Shown here piece after piece: positions 944 through 20,536 of a stretch of 32,000 nt of DNA. The position numbers were made by a program, and so were the translations under genes. Position 1 is the stretch's first letter. Each line of letters begins with the position of its first letter. Location: NCBI RefSeq assembly GCF_000015225.1, contig NC_008698.1:1710001-1742000 (forward strand), written 5' to 3'. The notes beneath the pieces are model-generated. The model was given only the letters and a program-made list of their open reading frames with translations. It was not told the origin of the DNA and made no database searches. The DNA is from Thermofilum pendens Hrk 5 (lineage in GTDB: Archaea; Thermoproteota; Thermoprotei; Thermofilales; Thermofilaceae).

Positions 944-1010
944 GCGCCCGGGTGACGAGGCACGTCGAGCCGAGCGTGCGTGAAGAGATTGGTCTTTGCT
1001 GACGGGCGCC
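944..1010 (+). ncRNA. C/D box sRNA (2'-O-methylation guide), candidate 1
   Basis: Perfect 7-bp terminal stem: GCGCCCG (944-950) pairs with CGGGCGC (1003-1009). C box GUGACGA 952-958, 11-nt guide, D' CCGA 970-973, 6-nt spacer, C' GUGAAGA 980-986, 12-nt guide GAUUGGUCUUUG, D box CUGA 999-1002. The stem/3-nt bulge/GA geometry fits a K-turn, and there is an own TATA box upstream. Confidence 0.6.
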
Positions 1011-4000
1011 TAGACCTTCTCGCCGCGCCTGCGCCGGAGCCTCCGGGCGGCTAGGACCGCCACGGCTAACAGCGCGATGGACGCGTATATAGGCACCTCG
1101 TACCTCAGTATGAAGTCGGAGTACTCTATCAGCTTCTCGTCCCCCTCGGTAGCCCACCTCTCCGAGAGGCTCTTTGCGAGCATCGCCAGTGGGTCTGCCG
1201 CCTTAGCCTTCTCGCGCGACTCCTCGTAGACCTTCAGCGCGCGGGAAAGGCTACCCCACTCCCCCGAGACCACCGCGAGCCTTATGCGTTCCTCGAGGCT
1301 CGCCGGGCTTCCGAGCTCCCTGCTCACGTTGACTGCCTTCAGGTAGAGGGTCGCCGGCACTAGGAAAGCTTTGACCGTGGTTTCGTTGTGCCAGCCGAGG
1401 TACTCCACGGAAAGCCTGAATACCCGTTCGCCCGTCTCCGCCACGGTTACCGAGTACTCGCCGTCGACCTTCACCCTGGCGGGTACGGCGGACCCGTTTG
1501 CAAAGTAAGCCCTGCCCGTCACCGTGCCGTTACCCACTATGGGGGCCCCGTCGAGGGTTCCGAGCACGTTCTCAAGCGCCAGGTTGAGGTAGTCCCAGTA
1601 AATCCTCCTGGAGGCCGTGAAGTTGAGCACGGACACCGTTACTACGGCGGAGCAAGCCTTGTCGAAGCGTAGCGTTAAGGACTGGTTCCCGAGGATCCTC
1701 CTGTACTCGCCCACCCCGCATCCGGCCACGGAGAGGTTCGCGTGGATCGGTAGCTTCGGGTAGACGTACAGCTTTACGTGAACCTCTGCCTGCTCGTTTA
1801 CGAGCACGAAGGGAGGCGCTTCGACGTCGACCCCCTTGACTACCACGTAGAAGAAGGACGCCTCGCTCCCGCCGAACCAGGAGCCTACGCTCAGCGTGTA
1901 CACTCCGGGGGCGCCCGGCTTCAGCTCGAACACGAACGAGGTCCTGTTCAGCGACGTGTCTACCGGAAGCTCTCTCTGCAGGGAGGAGTTCAGCCTGACC
2001 TCCAGGGAGGCTTTGACGACAGCCTCCGTCTCCACGGTTACCCTCACGGTGACGGCGTTGGGTATGAGGACTACCTCGGGCGCAGAGACGTGGACCTTCA
2101 CGGGCGGCATCTCGAGGCGCAACTTGGCGAAGCCGGTGTCCACGTCGAGCGCCTTGACGCCGGCCGGCAGGCTCCGGGTCAGCGTGAAGCTCTCGTTCGA
2201 CAAGACCCTGCCGAGAACCAGGTACTTGTGCGGCCCCGCGACCGCGACCTTAGCCTCCACGATGCTACCGTTCCCAAGTACAGTCCACCTGACCAGGGAG
2301 GCGCTGATGGTCGGGGGTACTACCCTGACCTTTGCGCTCCAGGAGGGGTTCCCGTTGAGCACGAAGAGGTAGACCTCCCTGTCTGAGCGCGACGCGTTAA
2401 CCGTTGCCTCCACGTCCTTGGAGGCTCCGCATGCGAAGTAGGCGCTCCCGATGTCGGAGCCGTTCACCCTCAGGCTCAGCGAGTAACTCACGGGGTACGG
2501 CGGACAGCTACCCTGAGCCGACAGCGAGACGGAGACTCTAGCCGTAAACCAGGACGGCGCCACGAGCTCTGGCTTTGCGGACAGGGACGCCGACGGTGCT
2601 GGTATCGATACCTCCACCACGCCCACGATGTACGTGGAGAGAGGCACAGCCGCCTTCCCGCCGAGCCCGCCTACCTCGACGGTAACCGTTAGGGCGGCTG
2701 GTTGAACCGCGACGTCTACTATCGTCTTGCCGCGCGCCCCGTCGTAGCTAGCCTTTACGACCGAGAGAGACGCTGGGACAACGGAGAAGGGCACGGATAC
2801 CTTGTCGTTGCTCCCCGTGAGTACGTCCACGTAGCCCGTCCCCTGGGCGGGCGCGCCCGTCACCGAGAAGCTCAGCCTAACGGTGTTATCGCCGGGGCTA
2901 AGGCTCAGGGTCTGGCTTAGGCTCTGGAAAGCTAGGGAGCTGTTCACCGGCGGGCGTACCACCAGGGGGAGCGAGAGAGCGACCTGGTTCGGGTTCGACA
3001 CTTTGAGGACGAGGTCCCCGTACCCGCTCGGCGACAGGAAGAGCGGGGTCTGCGTGTATAGAGTAACCGATGGTTTCTGCAGTGCGACGCTCAGCGTGGA
3101 GGAGTAGCCGGAGTACTCCACCGTTAGCTGGACGCTACCCCAGGTAACGTTCGTCAACGTTACGGACGCGTAGCCCGAGGATGCCTGGACGTCTACCCCG
3201 TTTACCCTCACCGTCCCCGTCACGGGTTGACCCGCGTACGTTACGTAGAGCTGGAGGCTGAGCCTGCCGTCCACGGGGTAGAAGGTCCCGCCGGACACCT
3301 TTACCAGGAGCGGCGGCGAGAAGGTTATCGTAACCTGGTAGGTAGCGCTGGAGGTAGACGGGTTGACCAAGGCTAGGAGGAGCGAGGAGTTAGACTCGTA
3401 GAAAGCCTGGTTCAAGGCTATGTTGCTACGCACGTTGCCGGACACGCTCACCGTGACCATGCCGGGCCCCGGTAGCGAGACGCTGTAGTACGATGCGCTG
3501 AGACCGCTGAGAGACACCTGGAAGCTCGTAGATGTGCCGGTAACGGAGACGCTCTGAAAGCTCGGCTTGTAGATGCTTCCGCAGATGGATACGCCCTTGA
3601 CTATCGCTAGGAGGAAGGACACGTAGGTGGAGTCAACCCACGCAGAGTCCACGCTACTACCCGAGACGCTACCGGAAAGGGCTCCCGGAACTGTAGAGGT
3701 CCCGGAAGCGAGCACCCAGTAGTAGAAGGCTCCGTAGGCGTAGCTCTGCCACGCGGAGCCCGAGTAGCTGTAGGGGTTGCTGGAGTAGAGGGAGTTGCTG
3801 AAGTAGTAGGGCTCCCACCCGCAGACACCGCTAAGCTCGCTGGAGATCCCCTCCGCGCTGGCCTCTATGTACCACGGGTAGCTACTCGGCACCGCAGTGT
3901 ACCTGAAGTAGGAGACTTGCGACACGTGAACCATTTCGTGGAAGGCGACATGCCTCAAAGTCGACGAGGTAAGCCCAGGCGCTATCGCGATGTAGTTCAC

Positions 4001-4345
4001 ACAGGAAGAAGTTATCCTGCCCGACGAATCGTAGTAGTACGTCCATCTCACGTATCCTCCCTCCCCGCCAGGCAACTGGGTCACGTTCACGACGTAGAGG
4101 CTACCAGAGCACGGAGGCGCTAGGCTAGCCCCGGAGCCGCTGAGAGCCGAGTACGCCGACTCCAGCTCCGCGGCGACACTCTGCGCGTACGCTACGCCCG
4201 CTCCCGCGGAGTCGTAAACCTCGAAGTGCGTGGAAGTGTATGCAGGCGCGGAGACGGCTACCCGTACCAGCGCCACCAGGAGGACAGCCAGGAAAGCTAC
4301 GAGTAGCCTCGAGCGCGTGCCGCCTAAAAGGGGGTAGCCGCGCAT
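1010..4345 (-). CDS. Large membrane-anchored surface (glyco)protein with N-terminal gluzincin-like metallopeptidase (peptidase MA-like) domain
   Basis: 1111-1116 aa ORF. N-terminal signal/TM (LLVAFLAVLLVALV) and C-terminal TM plus basic tail (IYASIALLAVAVLAARRLRRRRGEKV). HEMVH motif followed 20 aa later by WYIEASAEG (HExxH...E). Long S/T/V-rich beta-type middle with about 18 NxS/T sequons. ATG at 4345 is preferred over TTG at 4360 because the TATA box at 4367-4382 is then about 22-37 nt upstream. Confidence 0.8.
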   Translation of the reverse strand: MRGYPLLGGTRSRLLVAFLAVLLVALVRVAVSAPAYTSTHFEVYDSAGAGVAYAQSVAAELESAYSALSGSGASLAPPCSGSLYVVNVTQLPGGEGGYVRWTYYYDSSGRITSSCVNYIAIAPGLTSSTLRHVAFHEMVHVSQVSYFRYTAVPSSYPWYIEASAEGISSELSGVCGWEPYYFSNSLYSSNPYSYSGSAWQSYAYGAFYYWVLASGTSTVPGALSGSVSGSSVDSAWVDSTYVSFLLAIVKGVSICGSIYKPSFQSVSVTGTSTSFQVSLSGLSASYYSVSLPGPGMVTVSVSGNVRSNIALNQAFYESNSSLLLALVNPSTSSATYQVTITFSPPLLVKVSGGTFYPVDGRLSLQLYVTYAGQPVTGTVRVNGVDVQASSGYASVTLTNVTWGSVQLTVEYSGYSSTLSVALQKPSVTLYTQTPLFLSPSGYGDLVLKVSNPNQVALSLPLVVRPPVNSSLAFQSLSQTLSLSPGDNTVRLSFSVTGAPAQGTGYVDVLTGSNDKVSVPFSVVPASLSVVKASYDGARGKTIVDVAVQPAALTVTVEVGGLGGKAAVPLSTYIVGVVEVSIPAPSASLSAKPELVAPSWFTARVSVSLSAQGSCPPYPVSYSLSLRVNGSDIGSAYFACGASKDVEATVNASRSDREVYLFVLNGNPSWSAKVRVVPPTISASLVRWTVLGNGSIVEAKVAVAGPHKYLVLGRVLSNESFTLTRSLPAGVKALDVDTGFAKLRLEMPPVKVHVSAPEVVLIPNAVTVRVTVETEAVVKASLEVRLNSSLQRELPVDTSLNRTSFVFELKPGAPGVYTLSVGSWFGGSEASFFYVVVKGVDVEAPPFVLVNEQAEVHVKLYVYPKLPIHANLSVAGCGVGEYRRILGNQSLTLRFDKACSAVVTVSVLNFTASRRIYWDYLNLALENVLGTLDGAPIVGNGTVTGRAYFANGSAVPARVKVDGEYSVTVAETGERVFRLSVEYLGWHNETTVKAFLVPATLYLKAVNVSRELGSPASLEERIRLAVVSGEWGSLSRALKVYEESREKAKAADPLAMLAKSLSERWATEGDEKLIEYSDFILRYEVPIYASIALLAVAVLAARRLRRRRGEKV

Positions 4346-4366
4346 AAGTAAGCCTAGCAAATCCCC

Positions 4367-5550: not shown

Positions 5551-6027
5551 CTAGAGTACCTCCTGTATTTCTCCGATGAAGAGGGACTTCGAGAGAACCG
5601 CGAGCTTGTCGAGCCCCCTATGGATGACTACCTTCCCGCAGTCTACTATCCTCAGGACCTTCTCCTCGAAGAGCTTAGTGTCCACCGAGGGGTCGAACAC
5701 GAGCTCGCCGACGCCGAATATGAACAGGGAGCCGTCGACCTTCTCGAGGTCCTCTCTCGATAAAACCAGCCTCCCAACGTGCCTGATGAACACAGGCTTC
5801 CTGCGCTTCTCCACGGCGAGAGCCCTGCCTATAAAGCCCGGGAGATCCCCCTTGAAGCCCGCAAGCTGTGGGCCTGCGTCTAGAAGCGCTAAGAAGACCT
5901 TGAACGCCTGAGACGCCAGGTAGCCAACGCTGACACCCATCCTCTTGGCAGCCCTAGACAGCTCGCCGTAAGCCTCCCCGTCGACCCCCCTCAGCAACAC
6001 GTTCTTCGTGGATGCTTCAGGCACCAA
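5551..6027 (-). CDS. Hypothetical protein with possible N-terminal ribbon-helix-helix fold
   Basis: 158-aa ORF overlapping the upstream gene's end by 11 nt. N-terminal pattern NVLLRGVDGEAYGELSRAAKRMGVSVGYLASQAFKVFL looks like a strand-helix-helix (RHH/Arc-MetJ type). The C-terminal ~100 aa are unrecognised. Confidence 0.55.
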   Translation of the reverse strand: MVPEASTKNVLLRGVDGEAYGELSRAAKRMGVSVGYLASQAFKVFLALLDAGPQLAGFKGDLPGFIGRALAVEKRRKPVFIRHVGRLVLSREDLEKVDGSLFIFGVGELVFDPSVDTKLFEEKVLRIVDCGKVVIHRGLDKLAVLSKSLFIGEIQEVL

Positions 6028-7783
6028 CCCCCACCTCTATCCTCGAGATCCTCTCCTTGAGGCTCCTTATCCTCGAGAGAGCCTCCTCGCTCGCCGGCGA
6101 AGACTGCCTGGAGCCCCGCTTACCGAGAGCTAGCGCGGCGCCGGCGAAGACTACGAGTAGCGCGAGCGGCCACGCAGAGGCAACCCTCCTGGAGGGGGAC
6201 TCGAGCTTCACCCCGGAGACGTCCGGCACGCTTCTCTTCACCTTGATGTACGGCAAGGAGAAGTAGTAGACCTCGCCCATCATCTCCGTTCTTAGCTCTA
6301 CACCCGGCGTCAGGCTTACCGCTACCTGGCTGTAGAACGTCCTGTTGTACTCGTCGAACCCTTCCGGCATCACGCTGGACGAGCCCAGCTTCGAAAGCTT
6401 ACCCAGCGAGGAGTCTATGAGGGAAGCCGCCCTCGCGAGCCCTTCGGACAGAGACCTCAGGTTGTAGGCCGCCTCTCTAAGCATGCTCGACATCAGCCTT
6501 AGCCTCTGGGCCCCCGAGGCGAGGTTCTCGGCCGCCTCAGAGGCCTGCCCCTGGAGCCCCTCTATCTCTGCGAGGATCGATTTGTACCTTTCTAGGAGTC
6601 CTTCGACCTCGCCAAGCTGGTTCCGGGAGACCTCTATCAGGGAGGTAACCGCCGACACGTTCACATAGGCAGAGGAGTTCAGAGCCGCGAGTACCTTCTT
6701 TACCTTTTCATCGGTCAAAGACGCGTTGCGCGAGGCACTGCCCAGCGCTTCCTTCGCCTTAGCCACGAGCTCCGACGCGTTCTGCAACCACGCCGCCGCT
6801 TCTCCTCGGAGGCTCCCAGCCCTTCCCGAGAGGTTCTTTATCTGCTGAGCCGCTGTAAACATGTAGCTCGAAGCCTGCTCCGCCTGCCCCGCCGCCGATT
6901 CCAGCATTGAAGCCTCCTCTCCGAACCCCTTGCTGAGATTGTAGAGAAGGTCCCTCAGTTGCGTCACGTTCTCCTCGAGCTGCGTGAGGTTTCCCAGGTT
7001 TGACTCGAGGAACTTGTACATGAAGGACTTGTACCTCGACATCAGGGCTGCTTGCACGCGCGGGTCGAGTGTCACCGTCACTATCGGTGGGGACACGGCT
7101 ACCTCGCCCCAGGGGTTCTCGCCTCGAATCTCGAAGACCACGCTCAGAGAGTACGAGCCGTTAATCACGGAGCTCCACTGGAAGCTCACCTCGGTCCCGG
7201 ACTCGCGTACGCTCTGGGGGTTCTCGGAGTAGGCTACCGGGTAAAGGTACGCGGGGTCAACGCTCCAGCTGACGGAGATGGGGAGCTGTAGCTTGCTTAG
7301 CAACGGGTCGATAGCCGAAACTGTCAACGTGTACTCGAGAGTCTTAGCCTTGAGGGCTTGCGCCACGCAGTAGCCGCTGGAGCAGTTGAGCTTAAGCGGT
7401 TTTCCGTCGGCGCTCAGCTGGACCGACACGTTGAAGAGGCTCCTGGAGGGAACACTGTACTTTAAACTGTAACCCTTCGTTACGTTGAGGTTTCTCCACG
7501 TAGTTGCGCGTAGATTACCCGTGACCAGCGAGGAAGCCGGGGGCTCCGTGGAGGCCACGTCCCCCTCCTCCGGGTACGCCACGTAGTCCGTGAAGTTCAG
7601 CACGACGTCCCCGTCAAATATGAGCGTGACGGTCGCCGTGGTATTGTAGCTACACCCTGGCACTACGTCCATCTCCCTTACGACTGTCTTCTTGACCCCG
7701 ATAACCGGTTGCGCGTACAAAGCCGGAGCTAGCACGGTTAAGGCTACGAGCACCGCCAATACACGTCTAAGCATGGCATTCAT
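6017..7783 (-). CDS. Type I membrane-anchored extracellular protein: beta-rich N-domain plus long coiled-coil/helical region
   Basis: Signal peptide MNAMLRRVLAVLVALTVLAPALYAQP. About 230 aa beta-rich domain, then about 220 aa Ala/Leu/Ser/Glu-rich heptad-like region with many NxS/T sequons. C-terminal TM (AWPLALLVVFAGAALAL) and a cytoplasmic tail ending IRSLKERISRIEVGVGA. Own TATA box upstream. Confidence 0.8.
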   Translation of the reverse strand: MNAMLRRVLAVLVALTVLAPALYAQPVIGVKKTVVREMDVVPGCSYNTTATVTLIFDGDVVLNFTDYVAYPEEGDVASTEPPASSLVTGNLRATTWRNLNVTKGYSLKYSVPSRSLFNVSVQLSADGKPLKLNCSSGYCVAQALKAKTLEYTLTVSAIDPLLSKLQLPISVSWSVDPAYLYPVAYSENPQSVRESGTEVSFQWSSVINGSYSLSVVFEIRGENPWGEVAVSPPIVTVTLDPRVQAALMSRYKSFMYKFLESNLGNLTQLEENVTQLRDLLYNLSKGFGEEASMLESAAGQAEQASSYMFTAAQQIKNLSGRAGSLRGEAAAWLQNASELVAKAKEALGSASRNASLTDEKVKKVLAALNSSAYVNVSAVTSLIEVSRNQLGEVEGLLERYKSILAEIEGLQGQASEAAENLASGAQRLRLMSSMLREAAYNLRSLSEGLARAASLIDSSLGKLSKLGSSSVMPEGFDEYNRTFYSQVAVSLTPGVELRTEMMGEVYYFSLPYIKVKRSVPDVSGVKLESPSRRVASAWPLALLVVFAGAALALGKRGSRQSSPASEEALSRIRSLKERISRIEVGVGA

Positions 7784-7804
7784 GGTGGTCTACTGCGATA
7801 TCAC

Positions 7805-7818
7805 ATATTTAAACATAT
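7805..7818 (-). promoter_or_regulatory. TATA-box promoter of the 588-aa ectoprotein gene
   Basis: Minus-strand ATATGTTTAAATAT lies 22-35 nt upstream of the ATG at 7783. Confidence 0.5.
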
Positions 7819-7927
7819 CTTTTCTACAAACAATGTTTTTAGCCATTTGTCGAAACACTTGTCCCCCTGAAACTACACGCCACTCTCGCCACGGCTACTT
7901 CCAGGGCAGAAGGCTTGTACCTGCGCC

Positions 7928-8824
7928 TTACGAGGAGGCGTACTTCTCCAGCTTGGATATCCTGGCTTCGAGGGACTTCAACTCTCCTTCCAGAACCTCT
8001 GGGGGGATTTTCCCCTGCTTGGCTGCGGCCTCCAAGGCTTCCAGCTTTATTTTCAGCAGGTCTAGCTGTACCTTCGCGAAGCTCCCGTAACCAGCGGAGG
8101 ACTTTAGCTCCTTCACTTTGTCGGCGAGAGTCGACGTGGGTGGTTGCTGGTATATTTCCCCGCCCCTTATGTAGAACGTCCTCGTGGCGAGCTCGGCTAT
8201 CTCCGGGTTGTGAGTAACGATTATTATCGTCTGCCCGAAGGCCTCGTTGAGCCACTTAACGAGCGAGAGGACTCTCGACGCTGAGTCCACGTCGAGGCTA
8301 CCCGTCGGCTCGTCCATGAGTATTATGTCGGGGCTCGGGGCGAGCGCCCTCGCGATGGCGACTCTCTGTTGCTGCCCCCCGCTAAGCTGCCTAGGGAACT
8401 TCTCCTCGTGTCCCTTGAGCCCCACTATTTCCAGCATTTTGAGTGCTATCTCGCGGGCCTGCCTCCAGGAGTACATACCCGTGAATATCAGCGGCATCAT
8501 TACGTTCTCCACGGCCGTGAGGTTGCGTATCAGGTTGAATGACTGGAATACGAAGCCTATCTTCCTCGCCCTTATCTTCGTCAGCTCGTCCTCGTCTAGG
8601 TCCGTTATGTCGACACCGCCCACGATGACCCTCCCCTTCGATGGCCTTTCGAGCCCTCCCGCTATGGAGAGCAGGGTGCTCTTACCGCTACCGCTGGGCC
8701 CCATTATGATTGCTAGCTCCCCCTGATTCACCGAGAGGTTAACGCCCTTCAGGACGGGGATCTCCTCGGACTGCGTCCTGTAGATCTTCCAGATGTCCCT
8801 TAAGACTAGGGCTTCCTCACTCAC
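7928..8824 (-). CDS. ABC transporter ATP-binding protein (MacB/LolD/FtsE-type) with ~70-aa C-terminal coiled-coil extension
   Basis: Walker A GPSGSGKST, Q-loop, signature LSGGQQQRVAIARAL, Walker B ILMDEPTGSLD, H-loop VTHN. The extra C-terminal segment KVQLDLLKIKLEALEAAAKQGKIPPEVLEGELKSLEARISKLEKYASS is absent from typical ~230-aa homologues. Overlaps the permease gene by 8 nt. Confidence 0.95.
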   Translation of the reverse strand: MSEEALVLRDIWKIYRTQSEEIPVLKGVNLSVNQGELAIIMGPSGSGKSTLLSIAGGLERPSKGRVIVGGVDITDLDEDELTKIRARKIGFVFQSFNLIRNLTAVENVMMPLIFTGMYSWRQAREIALKMLEIVGLKGHEEKFPRQLSGGQQQRVAIARALAPSPDIILMDEPTGSLDVDSASRVLSLVKWLNEAFGQTIIIVTHNPEIAELATRTFYIRGGEIYQQPPTSTLADKVKELKSSAGYGSFAKVQLDLLKIKLEALEAAAKQGKIPPEVLEGELKSLEARISKLEKYASS

Positions 8825-9968
8825 TCTTCAACACCTCGACAGGCCTTATCGAGGTAGCCTTCCAGACCGGGTATAGCGACGACAGAACGCTGAGCCCCGC
8901 GGCGAGCAGGAAGCCCAGCAGTAGGGTCGCGGGCTCGAGTATGAGCGGAGGGTTCAGGAAGCCGTAGGAAGACACCACCTCTATACCTACCTGGGCGCCG
9001 ACTATGCCGAACACTATCCCAAGGATGCCTCCCGACACGCCGTAGACCAGCGACTCGAGCATGAATATCAACGCTATGTCCCTCCTCGAAGACCCTCCCG
9101 CGCGCATAATCGCTATCTCGCGTTGATGCTCCCTAACCGTGGAGGTAATCGTGCTCGTAGTCCCGAAGACTGCCACAGCGAGGCCTACCAGCGTTGTGGA
9201 GAGGAGGAGGCCCTCTATCAGCGACATTACCTTGAAGACTACCCCTATGACCTCCTCGCGGAGCATCACCCTAGACCCCGGGTATACAAGCGAGATCAGT
9301 GTTTTGACCTCCTGCGGGTCGACGCCGTCCTCGACCTTCACGACCGCCATGCTCACGTAGCCGGGCCTCCCGAGGAGGTTCTGCGCCTCCCTGAGGGGAA
9401 GGATCAGGTAGCCCCCCGCCGCTCCTATCTCCTCGATCTTCATAGCGACCTCGGCTATCCCTACTACCTCGTACTGCTTGAAGTAGGTCCCGTAGGGGGG
9501 CTTAACGGTGACCTTGTCGCCCACCTTTAACCCCAGCTTTCTAGCCAAGCCGACGTCCGCTATCGCGTAGGCCCCCGTCAACCCCGTGAAGGGCTGACCG
9601 TCGACGAACCTCGAAACCACGTTCTTTATGTCCTCGGGGCGGACGCCGAGCAGGAAGACGGCGTTCCTCCCAACGTACCCCGTGACTAGGATTGCCGGTG
9701 TAACGTCCTTCACGCCGGGAAGCCTCTTGATATCGGAGAGAACGTCCTCGGACACGTCGTAGAGCCCCTGCCCGTAGACAACGACCTCCCCGGGGAGAAC
9801 CTGCTGTACAATGTTCATAGCCGCCGTGCGGCTTCCAAGGCTTAGGATCCTGAGGCTTACGAACGTGGCGACGCCGCTCGCTATCGCGAGGATCGTTAGC
9901 GCGGCTATGAGCTTCTTGAAGAGTATGTCCCTCTCGACGAACTTTAACGCGAGCCTCCAAACGCTCAC
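8817..9968 (-). CDS. ABC transporter permease, FtsX/MacB-type (4 TM with large extracytoplasmic domain)
   Basis: TM1 near residue 20, an extracytoplasmic domain of about 200 aa, then three C-terminal TMs with an FtsX-like pattern (REIAIMRAGGSSRRDIALIFMLESLVYGVSGGILG). GTG start, translationally coupled to the ATPase. Confidence 0.9.
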   Translation of the reverse strand: MSVWRLALKFVERDILFKKLIAALTILAIASGVATFVSLRILSLGSRTAAMNIVQQVLPGEVVVYGQGLYDVSEDVLSDIKRLPGVKDVTPAILVTGYVGRNAVFLLGVRPEDIKNVVSRFVDGQPFTGLTGAYAIADVGLARKLGLKVGDKVTVKPPYGTYFKQYEVVGIAEVAMKIEEIGAAGGYLILPLREAQNLLGRPGYVSMAVVKVEDGVDPQEVKTLISLVYPGSRVMLREEVIGVVFKVMSLIEGLLLSTTLVGLAVAVFGTTSTITSTVREHQREIAIMRAGGSSRRDIALIFMLESLVYGVSGGILGIVFGIVGAQVGIEVVSSYGFLNPPLILEPATLLLGFLLAAGLSVLSSLYPVWKATSIRPVEVLKSE

Positions 9969-9990
9969 GCGGGGTCTACGGCGGGTTAGG

Positions 9991-10000
9991 TATTTAAAGA
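9991..10000. promoter_or_regulatory. TATA box in the divergent intergenic region (permease operon / methyltransferase)
   Basis: TATTTAAAGA lies 23-32 nt upstream of the minus-strand GTG at 9968 and 42-51 nt upstream of the plus-strand ATG at 10042. Confidence 0.45.
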
Positions 10001-10041
10001 TCGCCTACACGAGAAACGGGGGCAGGGGTTTGCATCGAGGA

Positions 10042-10617
10042 ATGCCCAGCGGCGCGCCGGGGCAACGCCTGCTACGCCTCCTGTACAGGTTCGTCCCCCA
10101 GGCTTACTACCGCTCCAAGGCGAGGGAGGTTCCGTATTCCCCCATGCTGATTGATGTGGGTAGCGGGAGGGGGCTTTTCCTCGGATCCCTTGCTGGGAGG
10201 TACGGTTTCGCTGTCGGGGTTGATGTCGACGCGGAACTCGTGAAGGCTTCGCCGAGGAGCCCTCATGCCTGCTACGTAGTGGCATCTGCGTGCATGCTAC
10301 CGTTCAGGGACTCCTGCTTCGATACCGCGGTTTTCCACGACTCGCTACACCACTTCGTGCGGCCGTTCGACGCGCTGGAAGAAGCCCTGAGGGTGTCTAG
10401 GAAAAGCGTCCTCATATTCGACTACGACGGAGGCGGGGCTCTCGCTAGGATAATCGCCACCGTGGAGAAAGCTCTAGGGTTTCCCGCCAGCTTTCTTCAA
10501 GCCTCGATGCTCGCTGAGAGGTACGGGGCGAGGGTAAGGGTCGGGCGGCTCGGATCGATGACCGCAGAGATAGACGCAGGCTCCTGGAGGAAAAAGCCGT
10601 CAAGCCAAGGCCTCTAG
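10042..10617 (+). CDS. Class I SAM-dependent methyltransferase
   Basis: Motif I LIDVGSGRGLF, motif II VGVDVD, and FDTAVFHDSLHHF. The ORF-track start at 9811 would overlap the permease gene on the opposite strand, so the ATG at 10042 downstream of the TATA box is preferred. Confidence 0.8.
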   Translation: MPSGAPGQRLLRLLYRFVPQAYYRSKAREVPYSPMLIDVGSGRGLFLGSLAGRYGFAVGVDVDAELVKASPRSPHACYVVASACMLPFRDSCFDTAVFHDSLHHFVRPFDALEEALRVSRKSVLIFDYDGGGALARIIATVEKALGFPASFLQASMLAERYGARVRVGRLGSMTAEIDAGSWRKKPSSQGL

Positions 10618-12164
10618 GTTTGTACGAGGTCCGGGTAGTACTCCCTCAGTGCCCTCACTATGTCGACGCGCATCGTCAGCGAGAGGACAGCGCTCAGCGC
10701 GACCTTGAGGAAGCCTTCCCTGTCGTTCGCGTAGAGATCCTTAGCCTGGGCGTACTTCCTCTTGAACTCCTCGTAGTCCTTCTCGTCGATCTCGCTCACG
10801 CGGGGGTCTTTCCCGAAGTCTATCAGTTCCCTTATGTCCTCCCCGAACAGCCACCCGTTCACCCCGTCCGTGAGGAGTTCTACTACGGCGCCGTCGCGCG
10901 AAGCGATGGACGGGACAGCGTTAACCCCTGCCTTCATGAAGCTCGTCCCCGAAGCCTCCCACCCGGGGAAAGGCGTAAATGCCAGCACATCGGCCCCCGA
11001 GAGTATGATCTTAGCGCTCTCCACGGAGTAGTCGTGGACGTAGACAACGTTGGGCCGCGTTTTCTCCAGCTCCTTGAACTTCCTCATGTACTGCAACCCC
11101 TCCTTGTCCTCCGGGTGCGCTTTCCCGCCGAGAACGAAGAGCGTGTCCCTGTCGCCGAGCTCCTCTATGAGCCTGACGGGGAAGTAGGGCCTCTTGTACT
11201 TCGTCACTCTGCGCGTCCACGCGAAGATAAAGGTGTCCTGGTCAACGTTGACCTGTTTCCTGGACTTCAGGAACCTGACGAGCTGGTCCCGCATCTCGAG
11301 CCTGACGCCTCTCAGCGTAGCGACGTCGAGGCTCCCGCTCGCGAACAGGTTTCTCAGCTTGGGGTTCATCCACCTATCTATGTTTACGCCGTTAGTCACG
11401 AACCTCGCTTTGTGGTAGTACTGGGGTATCACGCGCCTCATTATGTCGAAGTGCTTCGAGCTGACCATTACTACCTCGTAGGCGGTGGCTGCCCCGATAC
11501 TTGTCAGCACAACGGGGTTCTCGATGAACCGGTAGCCGAGCTCCTTGGCAAAGAGGTCCCTCGGGAAGGACGGGTGCCCCCAGGGCCCGGGAGTGTGTAT
11601 CACCAGCCGGTACCTCCCGGGTATCTTGAACACTAGGGGTATCACGGCGGTGTACGCCTCCTGGAGGTCTATGTACGCTATGTTCTCCAGGCCTATCCTG
11701 TCCTTCATGTAGGCTACGGCGGCGCGCGCGAGGAGGATGTACTTGTAGAACCTCTCCTCCGCGTCCCTCTCCAGGAAAACCCTCTCGCCGAGGCTACGCG
11801 CCCAATCCGGGCTTACGGGCTCGAAGAACACAGCCTTAGCGCTTCCATGCTCGTACTCCCATGCCTTGACGGCTACCTTCTCCCCCTTCAGGAAGACCTC
11901 CAGCTCGCCGCCGTCCTTGAGAGACCCCAGGAAGCTCGCAGGCTGGGGTTGCGGCTTGGCGACCGGGTTCAGCGAGTCATCGAACGCGTAGTCCACGTAG
12001 CCGTTCCTGTAGAACAGCGTCAAGGCGTAGTACTTCAGCCCCAGCTTCGCCGCCGCGTAGAACTTGTCGCCTTCCAGCACGCCTAGGCCTCCGGCGAACG
12101 TGTAGCCGTCGTCAAGGGCCAGCTCGGGCGTAACGCTAACCACAACCCTGGGCTCGGAGTCCAT
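10614..12164 (-). CDS. Alpha-glucan (glycogen/maltodextrin) phosphorylase family protein, short archaeal GT35 type
   Basis: N-terminal FAGGLGVLEGDKFYAAAKLGL resembles the GGLGVLAGD motif of the short phosphorylase family. The later LGGKAHPEDKEGLQY resembles the PLP-lysine region (GKAHP). Length 516 aa. Confidence 0.75.
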   Translation of the reverse strand: MDSEPRVVVSVTPELALDDGYTFAGGLGVLEGDKFYAAAKLGLKYYALTLFYRNGYVDYAFDDSLNPVAKPQPQPASFLGSLKDGGELEVFLKGEKVAVKAWEYEHGSAKAVFFEPVSPDWARSLGERVFLERDAEERFYKYILLARAAVAYMKDRIGLENIAYIDLQEAYTAVIPLVFKIPGRYRLVIHTPGPWGHPSFPRDLFAKELGYRFIENPVVLTSIGAATAYEVVMVSSKHFDIMRRVIPQYYHKARFVTNGVNIDRWMNPKLRNLFASGSLDVATLRGVRLEMRDQLVRFLKSRKQVNVDQDTFIFAWTRRVTKYKRPYFPVRLIEELGDRDTLFVLGGKAHPEDKEGLQYMRKFKELEKTRPNVVYVHDYSVESAKIILSGADVLAFTPFPGWEASGTSFMKAGVNAVPSIASRDGAVVELLTDGVNGWLFGEDIRELIDFGKDPRVSEIDEKDYEEFKRKYAQAKDLYANDREGFLKVALSAVLSLTMRVDIVRALREYYPDLVQT

Positions 12165-12187
12165 AGGGACCCATAACCCTTGGGAGG

Positions 12188-12208
12188 CTAAAAACTTTTA
12201 ATTATTCC
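12188..12208. promoter_or_regulatory. Bidirectional A/T-rich promoter region (phosphorylase / ZIP transporter)
   Basis: CTAAAAACTTTTAATTATTCC: one half lies 24-31 nt upstream of the minus ATG at 12164, the other half 26-36 nt upstream of the plus ATG at 12232. Confidence 0.45.
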
Positions 12209-12231
12209 TGGGTGCTAATTCTCAGAAGTTT

Positions 12232-13008
12232 ATGCTTCGAGAGGTAGGGCTCGCCCTGCCGGGAGACCCTGTACTGGCGAGCCTAGCCATGGGGCTATTC
12301 GTGGCTTTCACGACGAGCCTCGGCGCGGTGCCCGTTCTCTTCGGGAAGAAGGCCTGGAGGCACTTCACCCTGGCCCTCTCGTTCTCTGCCGGAGTGATGC
12401 TCGTCTCGAGCTTTACCAGCTTGATACTGCCGGCCCTCGAGGCGACGAGGTCCTTCGCGCTAGTATCCTCGGGGATACTTCTAGGCGTGCTGGCGATAAT
12501 GGCTGTCGACAGGCTGGTTCCCCACGAGCACCTCCTCAAGGGTTACGAGGGTCCCCCCGAGGGCAGGAGGCTCCTCAAGAAGAGCTGGCTCATAGCCCTG
12601 GCTGTCATCATCCACAACATACCGGAGGGGCTAGCGGTCGGCACGTCCATAGCCTACTCCGTCCCCCTGGGAGTAGCCACGGGCCTCGCGATAGGCTTGC
12701 AGGACATCCCGGAGGGGTTCGCCGTGGCATTCCCCATGGCTCAGGTAGCGGGTCCAAGGAAGGGGCTAGCCTACGGAGTGCTGAGCGGGCTCTCGGAGAC
12801 CCTGATGGCAGTGCTAGGGGCTTACTTCTTCACCGTGTTCTCCGCGCTCCTCCCCATAGGCATGAGCTTCTCGGGAGGGGCAATGCTCTACGTGACAGTC
12901 AAGGAGGTAGTCCCGGAGATATACAGGGAGCAAAGCGGCGAGTACGCGGCTACCGCGGGCTTCCTGCTCGGGTTCCTGCTCATGCTCTTCCTCGACTCGA
13001 TGCTTTAG
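12232..13008 (+). CDS. zupT: ZIP family (ZupT-like) divalent metal transporter
   Basis: Multi-TM protein with the paired signatures HNIPEGLAVG and QDIPEGFAVA typical of ZIP/ZupT. Confidence 0.88.
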   Translation: MLREVGLALPGDPVLASLAMGLFVAFTTSLGAVPVLFGKKAWRHFTLALSFSAGVMLVSSFTSLILPALEATRSFALVSSGILLGVLAIMAVDRLVPHEHLLKGYEGPPEGRRLLKKSWLIALAVIIHNIPEGLAVGTSIAYSVPLGVATGLAIGLQDIPEGFAVAFPMAQVAGPRKGLAYGVLSGLSETLMAVLGAYFFTVFSALLPIGMSFSGGAMLYVTVKEVVPEIYREQSGEYAATAGFLLGFLLMLFLDSML

Positions 13009-13037
13009 CGTGCGCAGAGTATAAATCTCTAGACTGG

Positions 13038-13562
13038 GTGTTGTACACCGTGTCCGGGGACATTGAGAGCTCCATACTGAGTAGCGAGAAGGTTAAGTTG
13101 GAGATGCGCGACTTCGAGGAGTGGTTTAAGCGCTACGGCGACTACCTGCTCGCGTACGAGCCCTCCAAGGTTGTCGTGAGGACAGCTTGGATTGCCCGCG
13201 TAATGCTCGACGAGGGCTACGCGCTCTACCCGGGGAGAGAGGAGGAGGTGAGGAAGGCGGTCGCTGGGATCCTAGTCGGGAAGCTCGAAGAGCTGGGCGT
13301 TCCGAGGGGCGCGATCAGGAAGGGGGACCTCAAGGGGAGCAGGCAGGACGTAGTCGAGGTGCTGAAGATAGTGTACCCCAACGTGTCCCAGACGGATAGA
13401 CCCTCGCTTCCGGCGGTGATAGCCCAGGAACGCGAGGCGAAAGTCGCGGAGGCACGGTTCTCAGCCTTCTCCCCGCGGAACCCCGGAAGCAAGTACATCT
13501 ACGCTTACTTGGCTACGCTCGTCCTGTCGGCCTTGCTTATCGCGCTCCTCTCCAGGATCTAG
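13038..13562 (+). CDS. Hypothetical tail-anchored membrane protein
   Basis: 174-aa ORF with coding-like codon usage and a single C-terminal TM (YIYAYLATLVLSALLIALLSRI). The GTG start is uncertain: TATAAATCT at 13019-13027 suggests the true start may lie downstream, for example the ATG at about 13104. Confidence 0.5.
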   Translation: MLYTVSGDIESSILSSEKVKLEMRDFEEWFKRYGDYLLAYEPSKVVVRTAWIARVMLDEGYALYPGREEEVRKAVAGILVGKLEELGVPRGAIRKGDLKGSRQDVVEVLKIVYPNVSQTDRPSLPAVIAQEREAKVAEARFSAFSPRNPGSKYIYAYLATLVLSALLIALLSRI

Positions 13563-13631: not shown

Positions 13632-14858
13632 ATGGGCGAGCGCGCGGCGGCCACGTGCCTGCAGTGCAGGGGGGCTAAGAGGCTCTGCGGTAAGAGTAGC
13701 TGCCCTGTGCTCGACTTGTGGCTAGCACTCGAGAGGGTCAGGGTTCCGGAGACAAGAGAGATCGACGGTTACTCTCCGCCCACCGTTTTCGTCGGGAGGC
13801 ACGGGTACCCAGAGGTCAGGTTCAGCGTCGGCGTCCCGTCCATCGAGGGAGACCCCGCGCTGTTCGAGGACCAGGAGCGGTGGCTCTCGATGCCCCTACG
13901 CGACGTGATAGGCATGAGGCTCGGGATAGTAAGGGGCGAGGTACGGGTCAAGGTCGACGGTCGGGGGCTCTCGGACGAGGTTAGGCTTGCCGCTCTCTCC
14001 TCTAGGCCCGTCGACGTCGAGATCCTACTGGAGAAAGCCCCCAGGGCGAGGCCACTGGTAGACCTCTTCTCCCCTCCCCTGGGGCCCGCCGGCCCGGCTG
14101 CGAAGATAAGCGTGCTGGGTAACCCGAGCGTGCCCAGGAGCCTGGAGAAAGCCTACTACGACTACGACCTGGGCGCCCGCGAGGCTATATATGCACTCTA
14201 CAGGGAGGGCGTGCCGGTACACTACATCCAGAGGGCTCTATCCGTGGGGGCTCTGGGGCTGGGAGGGCGTAGGAGGATCGTCCCGACTAGGTGGGCTATA
14301 ACAGCCGTGGACTCGACGCTGTCGCAGGAGCTGATCGAAGAGGTTAAGAGGCTGGACTACTTCGACGAGTACCTGTTCTTCGAGAGAAAGTTCTCGGATA
14401 ACACGTTCGTGGCGATAATAGCGCCCGGCGCGTGGAGCTACGAGTGGATAGAGGCGTGGTTCCCGCACACGACGTGGAACCCCTCGGCGAGGCTCGAGGT
14501 CGAGGGGGACTGGGAGGGGTTCAAGGGTAGAACCACGTACGCCTCGCTGGGAGGCTGCTACTACGCCGCCAGGCTTGCAACCGCGGAGTTCATGCTCCGG
14601 GAGAAGAGGCAGGGAACGGCGATACTCCTCCGCGAGATATACGAGGGCTTCTTCCTGCCGATAGGGGTCTGGTTCGTACGGGAAAACGTGAGGGAGCTCT
14701 TCAGGTCCAAGCCGGAGAGGTACGAAAGCCTCGAAGAGGTGCTACGCAGGTTGGAGAAGTCTACGAGGCTACCCCTGGGCACGTGGCTCGCCGCGTCAAC
14801 CCTCCTGAGGAGGCTTTTGAGGCAGAGTAGCATCGAGGCGTACATATGGAGGGGGTAG
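13632..14858 (+). CDS. Archaeal Nre-family DNA repair protein (NreA/NreB-like, COG1602)
   Basis: N-terminal Cys cluster CLQCRGAKRLCGKSSCP typical of Nre_N, about 400 aa in length, and a C-terminal PIP-like box QSSIEAYI(W) five residues from the end, matching the known C-terminal PCNA-interacting motif of NreA. Confidence 0.75.
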   Translation: MGERAAATCLQCRGAKRLCGKSSCPVLDLWLALERVRVPETREIDGYSPPTVFVGRHGYPEVRFSVGVPSIEGDPALFEDQERWLSMPLRDVIGMRLGIVRGEVRVKVDGRGLSDEVRLAALSSRPVDVEILLEKAPRARPLVDLFSPPLGPAGPAAKISVLGNPSVPRSLEKAYYDYDLGAREAIYALYREGVPVHYIQRALSVGALGLGGRRRIVPTRWAITAVDSTLSQELIEEVKRLDYFDEYLFFERKFSDNTFVAIIAPGAWSYEWIEAWFPHTTWNPSARLEVEGDWEGFKGRTTYASLGGCYYAARLATAEFMLREKRQGTAILLREIYEGFFLPIGVWFVRENVRELFRSKPERYESLEEVLRRLEKSTRLPLGTWLAASTLLRRLLRQSSIEAYIWRG

Positions 14859-18631: not shown

Positions 18632-20518
18632 ATGCTCGAAAAGAAGTTCCTCGGGTTACCTCTAGCTTTGCTCGTAGCCTTGTCCGCGGTGGTCGTCGCG
18701 GCGAGCCCGCCTACCGCTCAGCTCAAGGTAATCGGCTCAGCCTGGATACTCGCCCCCGCGGTGGCGCAGACTGAGTCCGGCCTCGTAGGCTCCGCTACCA
18801 ACATCTCGGTATTCGTAACGGAGGGTTGGGGAGACGTCTACGTCTCCACGTACTCCCTGACCCAGGAGGACTTCCAGGGAGCAGCTACGGCCGCCGCGAG
18901 GGTCGTCACGAGGCTCCTCGGGCTTAACTTCTCGCAGTACAACTACTACTTCAAGGTGCAGGGCGACGCCGTGATAGTGGGTGGGCCCAGCGCGGGAGTC
19001 GCCATGGCGGTCGCCGTATACTCGGCGCTCACGGGTAAGCCGATCAACCGAACAGTCTTCGTCACGGGTATGATCTCGCCGGACGGCACCGTCGGCCCGG
19101 TGGGCGGAGTTTTCGAAAAAGCTCAGGCAGTGGCTCAGGCGGGTGCGAAGGTGTTCCTAGTCCCACCCGGGCAAAGCATCGTAACGCAGTACCAGACCGT
19201 CGAGAGGAAGATTGGGCCCTTCAGGCTCTACACGACCCAGCCCGTCACCGTAAACCTGACGGAGTACGCCTACAAGAACTGGCACCTCAGGGTCGTGGAG
19301 ATATCCACCCTCTCCGAAGCTTTACGCTACTTCTTCGGCGTCAGCGTCGCGCGGCCACCGTTAGGGAAGCCTTACCTGAGCGCAGACACGAGGGAAAAGA
19401 TAGCCTCGGTGAAAAGCTCGCTAACCTCGCTGGCGCGGAAAGAGCTCGGCGAGGCTTACTCCTACGTTAACTCCTCGCGGCTAACACAGCTCGGAAAATC
19501 CACGCTGAAGTCTTACCTGGACAGGTACGCGAAGAGCTACCTGGATTCGGCGACGAGGGCGGAGGGCATCTCGTCGATACCCCTCCTCACGTCCAGCATA
19601 GCCGTGTCGAGGTGGATTAAGCTACTGGTAGACTACTACTCTGGCCTGCAACTGGACCAGCAGGTACAAGAGGTCAGCGACAGGCTCTCCCGGCTCGCGG
19701 GCGCGGTCGAGGACTCCGCGCCAAGGAGCATAGGAGAGATCAATGCACTCATACTGGCAACAGACAAGGTGATCCACGCTTTGAAGCTCTTCAACGAGTC
19801 GGCCGCCGCGTGGAGTAGCGACCCGGCGACAGCCCTGCAGAAGCTAGCTTACTCGTCAGCCCTGCTGGACGAGGCAGAGAACTGGCTGAGCGGCATCCCG
19901 AGGGGAGGGGGCATCCAGGCATCTCAAGCGGCGGCAACATACCTCTCGGTGGCAAGAAGCACGTGGCCGTACATATACTCCGTGCTCAGCGAGGCTGGCG
20001 GAGACCTAACTCTCATTGACGCAGCAAGCGCCTATTACCAGATCTCTGCCAGGCTGTACTCCTCCAGGAAGCCTTTGCTAGCGGCGGTGGCCGCCGCTAG
20101 GAGCGTGGCGCTGGCCGAGGCCGCAATGCTCTACTTCCAAGTGCAAGCCTCCGGGAAAGACCCCTACTCCGGGGTATCCCTGGAGAACGCTCTAAGCGTA
20201 GCCTCCGCCACGAGCGACATGCTTGTAACCGTGTACTACATCAATCAGTCCTACGGCGCCGAGCTGAGAGATTCGCTCGCATACCTCAAGCTTGGCTCAC
20301 AACTCGGGCAACTCACCCTGGACCTAGCGCGCGTAAAGCCGGGACAACCGGCGGAAACTCAAAAGACGCCCAGCGCTCCCACCCAGCCGGAGCAACCTCC
20401 CCAGAAACCTAGCCAACCCGGTAAAAGCTTAACGGACTGGCTACAAGAGATCCTCCTGAGAATATCACTATTTATAGAAAGCATCGTAGACTGGTTTAGA
20501 AGGCTACTCGGAAAATAA
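18632..20518 (+). CDS. Secreted/membrane-associated Lon-like S16 serine peptidase (no AAA+ module) with long helical C-terminal domain
   Basis: Signal peptide (LGLPLALLVALSAVVVAASP). Lon proteolytic-domain motifs GGPSAGVAMAVAVYSALTG (catalytic Ser) and PVGGVFEKAQAVAQAGAKVFLVP (catalytic Lys). About 380 aa of unassigned helical region, a P/Q-rich linker (PTQPEQPPQKPSQPG) and a terminal amphipathic helix. Confidence 0.85.
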   Translation: MLEKKFLGLPLALLVALSAVVVAASPPTAQLKVIGSAWILAPAVAQTESGLVGSATNISVFVTEGWGDVYVSTYSLTQEDFQGAATAAARVVTRLLGLNFSQYNYYFKVQGDAVIVGGPSAGVAMAVAVYSALTGKPINRTVFVTGMISPDGTVGPVGGVFEKAQAVAQAGAKVFLVPPGQSIVTQYQTVERKIGPFRLYTTQPVTVNLTEYAYKNWHLRVVEISTLSEALRYFFGVSVARPPLGKPYLSADTREKIASVKSSLTSLARKELGEAYSYVNSSRLTQLGKSTLKSYLDRYAKSYLDSATRAEGISSIPLLTSSIAVSRWIKLLVDYYSGLQLDQQVQEVSDRLSRLAGAVEDSAPRSIGEINALILATDKVIHALKLFNESAAAWSSDPATALQKLAYSSALLDEAENWLSGIPRGGGIQASQAAATYLSVARSTWPYIYSVLSEAGGDLTLIDAASAYYQISARLYSSRKPLLAAVAAARSVALAEAAMLYFQVQASGKDPYSGVSLENALSVASATSDMLVTVYYINQSYGAELRDSLAYLKLGSQLGQLTLDLARVKPGQPAETQKTPSAPTQPEQPPQKPSQPGKSLTDWLQEILLRISLFIESIVDWFRRLLGK

Positions 20519-20536
20519 AAAATTTTTTGAATTTTT
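20517..20536. terminator. Bidirectional oligo-T terminator between convergent genes
   Basis: AAAAAATTTTTTGAATTTTT: T6 and T5 tracts on the plus strand just after the TAA at 20516-18, and a T6 tract on the minus strand just after the minus-strand TAA at 20535-37. Confidence 0.55.

Follow-up and report, generated by a model that had tools for sequence, protein, structure and literature searches.

Type VII ATP-binding cassette (ABC) systems, of which MacAB, LolCDE, FtsEX and YbbAP are the textbook examples, use ATP to do work outside the membrane. They carry no substrate across their own membrane; ATP hydrolysis in the cytoplasm drives movement of an ectodomain, and what each system does is set by its partner protein. 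All of the characterised systems that we know of are bacterial. A cluster of four genes on the minus strand of the Thermofilum pendens Hrk 5 chromosome raises the question of whether an archaeon has a machine of this class and, if so, what its partner is. The cluster lies in a 32,000 nt stretch of NC_008698.1 (positions 1,710,001 to 1,742,000; here called the window) and encodes a permease, an ABC ATPase, a secreted coiled-coil protein of 588 aa, here named the ectoprotein, and a small protein, here named p158. An earlier reading of the sequence alone, the original prediction, saw in it a possible archaeal FtsEX-EnvC-like mechanotransmission module. In the best-supported reading of the data presented here, the cluster encodes a new archaeal variant of type VII mechanotransmission. 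Whether it is a four-component envelope machine, made up of a type VII ABC pair, a dedicated glycoprotein partner and p158 as a ribbon-helix-helix (RHH)-type repressor, is in our estimate evenly balanced.

Our searches of the literature on archaeal MacB/FtsX partners and on Thermofilum ABC and coiled-coil proteins returned no description of this module, nor of any archaeal type VII ABC partner. The module is also absent from the text of a 2026 preprint on the surface layers (S-layers) of Thermoproteota (10.64898/2026.08.21.746120).

A conserved four-gene module

The positions of the four open reading frames (ORFs), of both gene overlaps and of both TATA boxes were as the original prediction gave them. 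The permease gene (8817–9968; 383 aa) begins with GTG, and the start of the ATPase gene (7928–8824; 298 aa) overlaps its stop by 8 nt. The ectoprotein gene (6017–7783; 588 aa) begins with ATG, and its stop is overlapped by the p158 gene (5551–6027; 158 aa), by 11 nt from the TTG start or by 8 nt from the next GTG, which is the start that fits a 157-aa database entry. The same TATA box, TTTAAATA, is found 22 nt before the permease GTG (9991–9998) and 22 nt before the ectoprotein ATG (7806–7813), the latter having been placed essentially correctly, at 7805–7818, by the original prediction. The window therefore carries two tandem units, the ABC pair and ecto-p158, each with little or no leader, and as the first TATA box is only 22 nt from the GTG, the permease–ATPase transcript is expected to be leaderless or nearly so.

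A word-indexed search with the ectoprotein returned 11 relatives, all from Thermofilum or Infirmifilum, and an exhaustive profile search added approximately 16 remote full-length relatives from metagenome-assembled genomes (MAGs) of uncultured 'Thermoprotei archaeon' entries. The ectoprotein family has 31 non-redundant members, and after de-replication at 80% identity there were 23 lineages with usable context, in which neighbouring genes were checked with hidden Markov models. The ABC pair adjoins the ectoprotein gene in 22 of these 23 lineages. The original prediction was to be given up if homologues of the 588-aa protein never occurred together with the ABC pair, and on this point the outcome is decisively in its favour. 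The linkage extends to loci where identity to the window falls to 40–46% for the permease (40–82% across all module loci), 52–60% for the ATPase, 24–46% for p158 and 23–28% for the ectoprotein, and the flanking genes are unrelated from locus to locus.

When metagenomes were scanned from the permease side, 38 loci were found, and all of those with enough DNA carry an ectoprotein gene: 21 in the same direction as the ABC pair, and one, the locus made up of L056 and L052, in divergent orientation. The linkage has been kept through inversion, as the ectoprotein gene is divergent and upstream both in L017 and in L056+L052. L052 was considered as an exception, an ABC pair without a downstream ectoprotein gene, and dropped, as the start of its contig overlaps the end of that of L056 at 100% identity over 123 nt and the two are one divergent locus. 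The exception among the 23 lineages is P0047 (L013), the most divergent relative (714 aa), which lies beside an M50 protease and has no ABC pair nearby.

The ecto-p158 unit and the ABC pair might be independent, adjacent by chance or through shared regulation and without any coupling; their separate TATA boxes in the window and the lack of a nearby ABC pair in P0047 are in keeping with this. The original prediction had itself cautioned that, with a TATA box of its own, the ectoprotein gene need not be co-transcribed with the pair. However, the ATPase and ectoprotein genes abut or overlap in L020 and L059 (from called coordinates) and apparently in L053 (from stop-to-stop ORFs), and this translational coupling in several lineages removes the caveat. 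Overlapping genes, and adjacency in 22/23 lineages across deep divergence, inversion and changing flanks, make mere neighbourhood very unlikely, and the ATPase tail described below argues in the same direction. We conclude that the four genes are a real conserved functional module and that it is confined to the Thermofilaceae and related uncultured Thermoprotei. The Desulfurococcales placement in the original prediction was wrong, as the host belongs to the Thermofilaceae (Thermofilales).

The genes of approximately 360 aa that follow p158 in L001, L002 and L007 were considered as a fifth conserved gene and rejected, as they are unrelated to one another (a secreted helical protein, an archaeal AAA ATPase and an unknown protein). 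A secreted, sequon-rich protein of 366 aa encoded elsewhere in the window (20535–21635, minus strand), which looks all-helical from its sequence and has no family match, has homologues with 40–56% identity in L001 (10501–11580), L033 (approximately 12068–13087) and L027 (approximately 13695–14678). Its distance from p158 grows from none in L001, where it follows directly, to approximately 0.7 kb in L033, 2.3 kb in L027 and 10.6 kb in the window, and its link to the module is loose and lineage-specific.

The ABC pair and the type VII superfamily

Hydropathy places one transmembrane segment (TM) at the N-terminus of the permease, followed by an ectodomain and three C-terminal TMs that make up an FtsX-type bundle, as expected from the original description of a 4-TM protein with an ectodomain of approximately 200 aa. 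The Pfam domains MacB_PCD (residues 23–224; 1.5e-16) and FtsX (residues 260–374; 5.7e-20) both match above their gathering thresholds. Compared with solved structures, the permease-family profile aligned continuously with LolE (residues 17–381), LolC, LolF and MacB over the whole periplasmic domain, whereas FtsX (8idb) aligned only at residues 199–328, in the TM region (E=9e-6). As the alignment with LolE, LolC, LolF and MacB is full and that with FtsX is limited to the TM region, the permease ectodomain is of the Porter plus Sabre type. The NCBIfam models gave the same picture, with a full-length match to lolCE at 115 bits (cut-off 362) and matches to FtsX models in the TM region only, at 22–41 bits (cut-offs 225–255).

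The core of the ATPase (residues 1–227; 8144–8824), a nucleotide-binding domain (NBD), resembles those of LolD, MacB and MJ0796. Its best NCBIfam models are LolD, MacB and DevA, with LolD at 218 bits against a cut-off of 308, and the nearest solved ATPases in a PDB sequence search are MJ0796, Spr0694 (second), YtrE, the MacB NBD, LolD, YbbA and BceA. FtsE was not among the best 60 PDB matches. These sequence relationships assign the ABC pair to the type VII (mechanotransmission; MacB/FtsX/LolC) superfamily, and the pair has the features of that class: a 4-TM permease, a large ectodomain with a Porter domain between TM1 and TM2, and an adjoining NBD of the LolD/MacB/FtsE type. Of the FtsEX-EnvC-like module first proposed, what stands is a conserved module in the type VII superfamily for which mechanotransmission is plausible; membership of the FtsEX family does not.

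The best full-length permease matches (LolE, LolC and LolF) and the LolD model for the ATPase liken the pair to LolCDE and LolDF, and as there is a single permease gene, the permease would be a homodimer like LolF. A LolCDE-like pair could treat the ectoprotein as cargo, extracting, inserting or assembling this C-terminally anchored glycoprotein for release or for hand-over to the S-layer, and the ectoprotein gene's own strong promoter and fast evolution are what would be seen for an abundant surface protein. However, the Lol scores all fall far short of the NCBIfam cut-offs, and no LolA-like gene, which would supply an acceptor, is found in the module or its flanks. What the Lol system recognises, moreover, is a lipid moiety, and a lipobox is missing from the ectoprotein. 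The conserved cytoplasmic helix of the ectoprotein, which is charge-matched to a conserved tail on the ATPase, fits a stable partner better than a cargo, and we consider the cargo role decidedly unlikely.

The ectoprotein

The original prediction of a secreted coiled-coil protein was borne out. The ectoprotein has the appearance of a type-I membrane glycoprotein, with a signal peptide (residues 1–24), 15 N-glycosylation sequons, a C-terminal TM evident from hydropathy (residues 532–555; nt 6119–6190) and a cytoplasmic tail of 33 residues. An AlphaFold2 model made from an 11-sequence alignment (mean pLDDT 81) has two beta-sandwich domains (residues 27–238; nt 7070–7705), an antiparallel coiled-coil hairpin (residues 266–468; nt 6380–6988) with arms at 266–368 and 377–468, and a conserved C-terminal beta module (residues 470–520; nt 6224–6376) that was modelled at 488–516. 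These are followed by the TM helix and by a cytoplasmic amphipathic helix, seen in the sequence at residues 556–588 (nt 6020–6118) and in the model at 564–583. Each arm of the hairpin has approximately 100 residues, which at 1.5 Å per residue corresponds to roughly 15 nm, and in the 31 non-redundant homologues both arms have a 3.5-residue periodicity with a single a/d hydrophobic seam. The second beta domain, the C-terminal beta module and the base of the hairpin are the best-conserved parts, and the distal hairpin is variable. Conserved sequons are found at the base (N265, N272 and N282) and the tip (N369) of the hairpin.

No Pfam or NCBIfam family matched the ectoprotein, the only signals being sub-threshold coiled-coil noise (SMC, MCPsignal and Mce4_CUP1), and a comparison with PDB sequences returned nothing at E<=1. 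The Pfam models for HlyD, membrane fusion protein (MFP) and Biotin_lipoyl domains gave no match even at E<=1, and LytM, CHAP and NlpC/P60 domains were not found with Pfam, NCBIfam, PDB or Foldseek searches. By these searches the ectoprotein family is new, with no detectable homologue among known adaptors. The beta-sandwich domains resemble the mu-homology domains of eukaryotic adaptors (AP-2 mu2, COPI delta and SGIP1) in Foldseek comparisons (E ~1e-7, TM-score ~0.4), a resemblance that is probably that of a generic double beta-sandwich and not homology.

The FtsEX systems that act on EnvC, PcsB, CwlO or RipC belong to the same superfamily, and achieve mechanotransmission without transport through a partner with an antiparallel heptad hairpin of similar length. 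If the module worked in that way, the permease ectodomains would clamp the hairpin, and movement of the coil would switch an effector surface and so activate a separate envelope-remodelling enzyme. The type VII identity of the ABC pair, the tight gene linkage and the presence of a genuine antiparallel heptad hairpin are all consistent with this, and the length of that hairpin, approximately 100 residues per arm, is like that of EnvC, whose coiled coil is an antiparallel hairpin of 25 heptads (PMC7668044). However, the EnvC binding mode needs the Sabre domain to be absent and the X-lobe to be present (Cook et al., PMC7668044), and the module permease is Sabre-type, has no X-lobe and aligns with FtsX in the TM region only, while FtsE lies outside the best 60 solved matches to the ATPase. 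The module partner differs from EnvC and its counterparts in being an integral membrane protein with a conserved base and without a hydrolase or activator domain, and no LytM, CHAP or NlpC-type domain or enzyme partner is encoded in the module. Within the ectoprotein, conservation is lowest in the distal coil, which bears sequons and corresponds to the site on EnvC that is gripped by FtsX. In addition, the Thermofilum-type archaea that carry the module have, to our knowledge, no peptidoglycan. The specific analogy with EnvC is therefore not supported, given the Sabre-type ectodomain, the lack of a hydrolase domain and conservation at the base instead of the coil, and an FtsEX-EnvC-like mechanism is unlikely.

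By analogy, partner engagement is probably closer to that in MacAB, YknXYZ and Spr0693-0695 than to that in FtsEX-EnvC. MacAB(-TolC), YknXYZ and Spr0693-0695 share with the module a 4-TM permease with Porter and Sabre domains, a separate LolD/MacB-type ATPase and, encoded beside the pump, an accessory protein that is anchored in the membrane and has an extended alpha-helical hairpin. The adaptors of YknXYZ and Spr0693-0695, which are monoderm systems, are believed to build a chimney by which compounds leave the membrane. MacA touches the Porter and Sabre domains on their outer side (PMC7668044, PMC5985334). As the ectoprotein is conserved at its base, and its distal hairpin is variable and glycosylated, the permease ectodomain more likely touches the base than the coil. 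The likeness has limits: the ectoprotein is not an MFP and shares only the hairpin element, it is heavily N-glycosylated to judge by its sequons, the system is archaeal, and the module has a cytoplasmic coiled-coil helix on the partner and an ATPase tail that is found in no solved homologue.

Two other comparisons were made. The MCE, PqiB and LetB systems are alike by analogy only, being ABC-powered and having a membrane-anchored accessory protein with a beta-rich base and a long helical projection that spans the envelope space, but the module has no MCE domain and its ABC pair is type VII, not MlaE/YrbE-type. Sub-threshold Mce4_CUP1 matches in six of nine ectoprotein family members are probably noise from coiled-coil composition. 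The SlaB-type stalks of Thermoproteota, which occupy the space between the membrane and the S-layer, are like the ectoprotein in having beta-sandwich domains and a coiled coil as well as a signal peptide and an anchoring TM at the C-terminus. Kinship with SlaB was rejected, as there was no sequence or fold match to SlaB (8QOX), and the coil of the ectoprotein folds back as a hairpin onto a beta base near the membrane, where SlaB has a membrane-proximal trimeric stalk. The Thermofilales have been proposed to use a PySLP-like S-layer protein instead of the SlaB type (10.64898/2026.08.21.746120).

The ATPase tail and a possible cytoplasmic contact

The ABC_tran core of the ATPase ends near residue 227 and approximately 70 further residues follow, in agreement with the unusual coiled-coil tail of the original prediction. 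This tail (residues 228–298; 7931–8143) consists of two heptad-patterned helices with a G-K-I-P-P turn between them and ends in LKSLEARISKLEKY. In a PDB sequence search no match extended beyond approximately residue 263 and most stopped near 227, so that no solved structure is matched by at least the last 35 or so residues, the final heptad helix among them. The best ATPase matches fall sharply into two groups, one of 293–304 aa with the tail, all from Thermofilum, Infirmifilum or Thermoprotei, and one of 223–260 aa without it, from bacteria and methanogens. Every complete module ATPase has the tail, including that of the most divergent locus (P0153/L059), where it is again followed by a gene of the ectoprotein family. 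That the tail is found only where the ectoprotein is found is a further point against mere neighbourhood of the two units.

A single tail-less variant was found, in L045 (metagenome contig OGCA01002160.1). Its permease is 79% identical to that of the window, its ATPase is 59% identical and 239 aa long, and there is no ectoprotein gene within 800 nt downstream. L045 may be a tail-less paralogous pair, and as such would offer a natural control on whether tail and ectoprotein go together.

The ATPase tail and the cytoplasmic tail of the ectoprotein both end in similar three-heptad helices. The net charges of the ATPase tail and the ectoprotein cytoplasmic helix are inversely related (Spearman rho -0.69, p=0.001, n=19 lineages), though this value is uncorrected for phylogeny among 19 related lineages and is only suggestive. 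The relation is present inside each of two broad clades (-0.63, n=8, and -0.71, n=11). For five control pairs of regions (ATPase core and ectoprotein tail, ATPase tail and hairpin, ATPase tail and whole ectodomain, ATPase core and hairpin, and ATPase tail and core), |rho| was at most 0.24 and not significant. The charge relation suggests electrostatic pairing of the two tails, and hence a contact inside the cell, and with its clean controls it too speaks against two uncoupled units. It has a parallel in MacAB, where the TM and cytoplasmic segment of MacA are needed to stimulate the MacB ATPase (PMC5985334).

The ATPase coiled coil may be a hook that grips the cytoplasmic end of the partner. 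The complex would then be a transmembrane clamp with a hold on both sides, and what it drives beneath the archaeal S-layer would be a glycosylated structure of approximately 15 nm, serving as a lever or a conduit. We put this forward tentatively, as a possibility that is more probably wrong than right. Were it true, an ABC motor would be coupled to extracellular work in a new way, with ATPase movements acting on the partner by two routes, the permease ectodomain and the TM helix of the partner itself, and no partner-dependent type VII ABC machine would have been described in Archaea before it.

p158 and the promoter box

The p158 gene adjoins the module in 18 of the 23 lineages and is gone from the other five while the remaining three genes persist. 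As it is dispensable in 5/23 lineages, p158 appears to be an accessory regulator and not a part of the machine. The protein is predicted to be cytoplasmic, and an AlphaFold2 model (mean pLDDT 80.5) has a low-confidence strand, two helices, a disordered linker and a confident alpha/beta domain at residues 79–157. The original RHH-like label is reasonable for the sequence pattern of the N-terminus (residues approximately 8–55; nt 5863–6006), in which a KNVLLRGVD strand is followed by a helix, a G-V-S turn and a second helix, and for its weak matches, namely Pfam RHH_1 (E=0.023 in 2/14 members), a FitA-like RHH (0.12), and seven RHH proteins as the best local Foldseek matches (TMt 0.4–0.7, but E>1); no single one of these tests is significant. 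The C-terminal alpha/beta domain (residues 76–158; nt 5554–5802) appears to be novel, with no structural match in Foldseek.

Relatives of p158 that are 223 aa long and share 30–35% identity were also found in Bathyarchaeota (P0029 and P0030; contigs L003–L006, gene at 7001–7672). They have an extra N-terminal coiled-coil segment, and their neighbours are a 161-aa protein of unknown function and an ABCE1/RLI gene. These were set aside as evidence on the module, as they have no adjoining MacB-type pair; for the same reason, the p158 fold must also exist outside the module.

Alignment of the promoters across loci revealed a conserved GATATAC(A) box 3–5 nt downstream of the TATA box. In the approximately 505 kb of DNA fetched, a regular expression flagged 38 TATA-adjacent copies of GATATAC, of which 34 are at the ectoprotein or permease promoters of modules and the remaining four are replicates of one site that has no real TATA box. 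The exact box is present in 13 of the 18 lineages with p158 and variants are present in three more (the window, L033 and L015); two lineages have contigs that do not reach the promoter. All four ABC-linked lineages without p158 (L018, L046, L049 and L059) lack the box. In the window, the ecto-p158 promoter (7797–7819, minus strand) is made up of GATATG (7814–7819), the TATA box, TGT and GATATC (7797–7802), with the ATG 13 nt downstream. This composite element occurs once in the 32 kb, and no GATATAC-type box was found at the permease–ATPase promoter of the window. The box lies between the TATA box and the transcription start, the classical position of an archaeal repressor site. As no other product of the module is a candidate DNA-binding protein, we infer that p158 binds the box. 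Judged on sequence, p158 is probably the repressor of the module and the 7797–7819 box its candidate operator.

One MAG, GCA_964587325.1, holds two paralogous modules, of which L018 has neither p158 nor a GATATAC box and L019, the same lineage as L041, has both. A second motif, either the inverted repeat TTCG(N6-10)CGAA or a TTCGAC/GTCGAA half-site, was seen 45–60 nt upstream of the ectoprotein start in the window, L001, L002, L007, L046, L048 and L049; in the window it is the half-site TTCGAC at 7849–7854 (minus strand), half of the TTCG(N)CGAA motif. As this motif also occurs in lineages without p158, it is presumably the site of another regulator.

A dedicated RHH-like regulator with its box at module promoters recalls the coupling of regulator and type VII transporter in BceAB-type systems (PMC5985334). 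A module of that kind would detect an envelope-active compound and pass a signal through the cytoplasmic tails to p158, so de-repressing the operon for sensing or detoxification, and the confidently modelled C-terminal domain of p158 could bind the tails. However, a contact between p158 and the tails is conjecture only, BceB has 10 TMs and a different ectodomain in place of the 4-TM permease, and p158 is missing from five of 23 lineages that have kept the other three genes, so that signalling to p158 cannot be the core function. We find a BceAB-type role doubtful.

A proposed mechanism

From what was observed, namely gene content, predicted architectures, co-occurrence, distribution of cis-elements and charge correlation, we infer an arrangement, with all of its physical contacts, the way in which regulation acts and the output, in which the ABC complex would hold its partner on both sides of the membrane. 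Outside, the beta-sandwich base and the C-terminal beta module of the ectoprotein would lie against the exterior of the permease Porter and Sabre domains, an engagement like that of MacA but by a non-homologous protein, and the TM helix of the ectoprotein would lie beside those of the permease. Inside, the amphipathic helix of the ectoprotein would pair with the coiled coil that ATPases of this clade carry as a tail. As the ATPase dimer and the ectodomain close and open, driven by ATP, they would move the partner, whose glycosylated hairpin of approximately 15 nm would project into the space beneath the S-layer. The output would be mechanical work in that space, most likely the movement of a hydrophobic or peptidic molecule off the membrane by way of assembled hairpins, either along them or through them, or alternatively the switching of hairpin conformation. 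The binding sites of p158 would be the GATAT(A)C boxes, which lie on both sides of the TATA box or after it. For the window, the result would be autoregulation of the ecto-p158 unit; control would be confined to that unit in the Thermofilaceae, and in deeper lineages would take in both units or a single four-gene operon.

Several points weigh against this mechanism. The ectoprotein does not have the MFP fold (lipoyl, beta-barrel and membrane-proximal domains), and among its top 50 Foldseek PDB matches there was no MFP, nor was there EnvC or SlaB. Its anchor is C-terminal, whereas that of MacA is N-terminal. In pumps of the MacAB type, six adaptor subunits assemble into a channel above the MacB dimer. 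Given the single a/d seam of each arm, nothing points to a barrel or channel of hairpins, although one hydrophobic seam per helix is compatible with a barrel or with none, and so neither supports nor excludes one. There is no substrate or effector gene within the module. On the cytoplasmic side, a C-terminal extension on an ABC ATPase may do no more than stabilise the dimer, and the limit placed above on the charge correlation applies. As to p158, its RHH assignment is statistically insignificant in each individual test, and the distribution of the box is imperfect: in the window the box is the variant GATATC, and a second copy, GATATG, precedes the TATA box, in L031 the sole copy is degenerate, and the outlier L013, which is without p158, has a box with one mismatch.

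If true, the clamp might serve in remodelling of the envelope or S-layer in very long filamentous cells, or in the extraction or scavenging of membrane lipids. Thermofilum needs membrane lipids from other organisms. The module is a candidate archaeal example of a type VII system with a new partner family, a clade-specific ATPase tail and a suggested contact between partner and motor in the cytoplasm. Its confirmation would widen the mechanotransmission repertoire and provide a first molecular handle on active processes between the membrane and the S-layer of Thermoproteota. The TATA-adjacent box and the RHH-like protein form a compact candidate archaeal repressor–operator pair. The clade is narrow and genetically intractable, leaving biochemistry and structure as the realistic route, and the thermostable proteins are suited to cryo-electron microscopy.

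Other features of the window

The genes around the module are ordinary chromosomal genes, and scans of the window with Rfam and for tRNAs returned no match. Identity as a defence system was considered and dropped, as PADLOC returned only generic P-loop and coiled-coil matches. Further along the window there is a BrxL-like Lon-related ATPase (BrxL_N and BrxL_ATPase; 30167–31576, plus strand), no further BREX components were seen among the window ORFs scanned, and a separate 628-aa protein has a Lon_C domain (18632–20518, plus strand).

Two genes downstream of the module is an ORF of 1116 aa (1010–4360, minus strand). Its product has a signal peptide, an N-terminal HEMVH (HExxH) motif, a Ser/Thr/Val-rich body that looks beta-rich by composition only, a C-terminal TM and a basic tail (RRLRRRRGEKV). 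It had no Pfam, NCBIfam or PDB sequence match, and could be a compact PySLP-like S-layer candidate of the Thermofilales or a surface metalloprotease.

On the other side of the module, an S-adenosylmethionine-methyltransferase ORF (9811–10617, plus strand) as listed begins antisense within the permease gene. As its first approximately 50 codons match other loci only as permease antisense, its true start is probably near 10040 or later.

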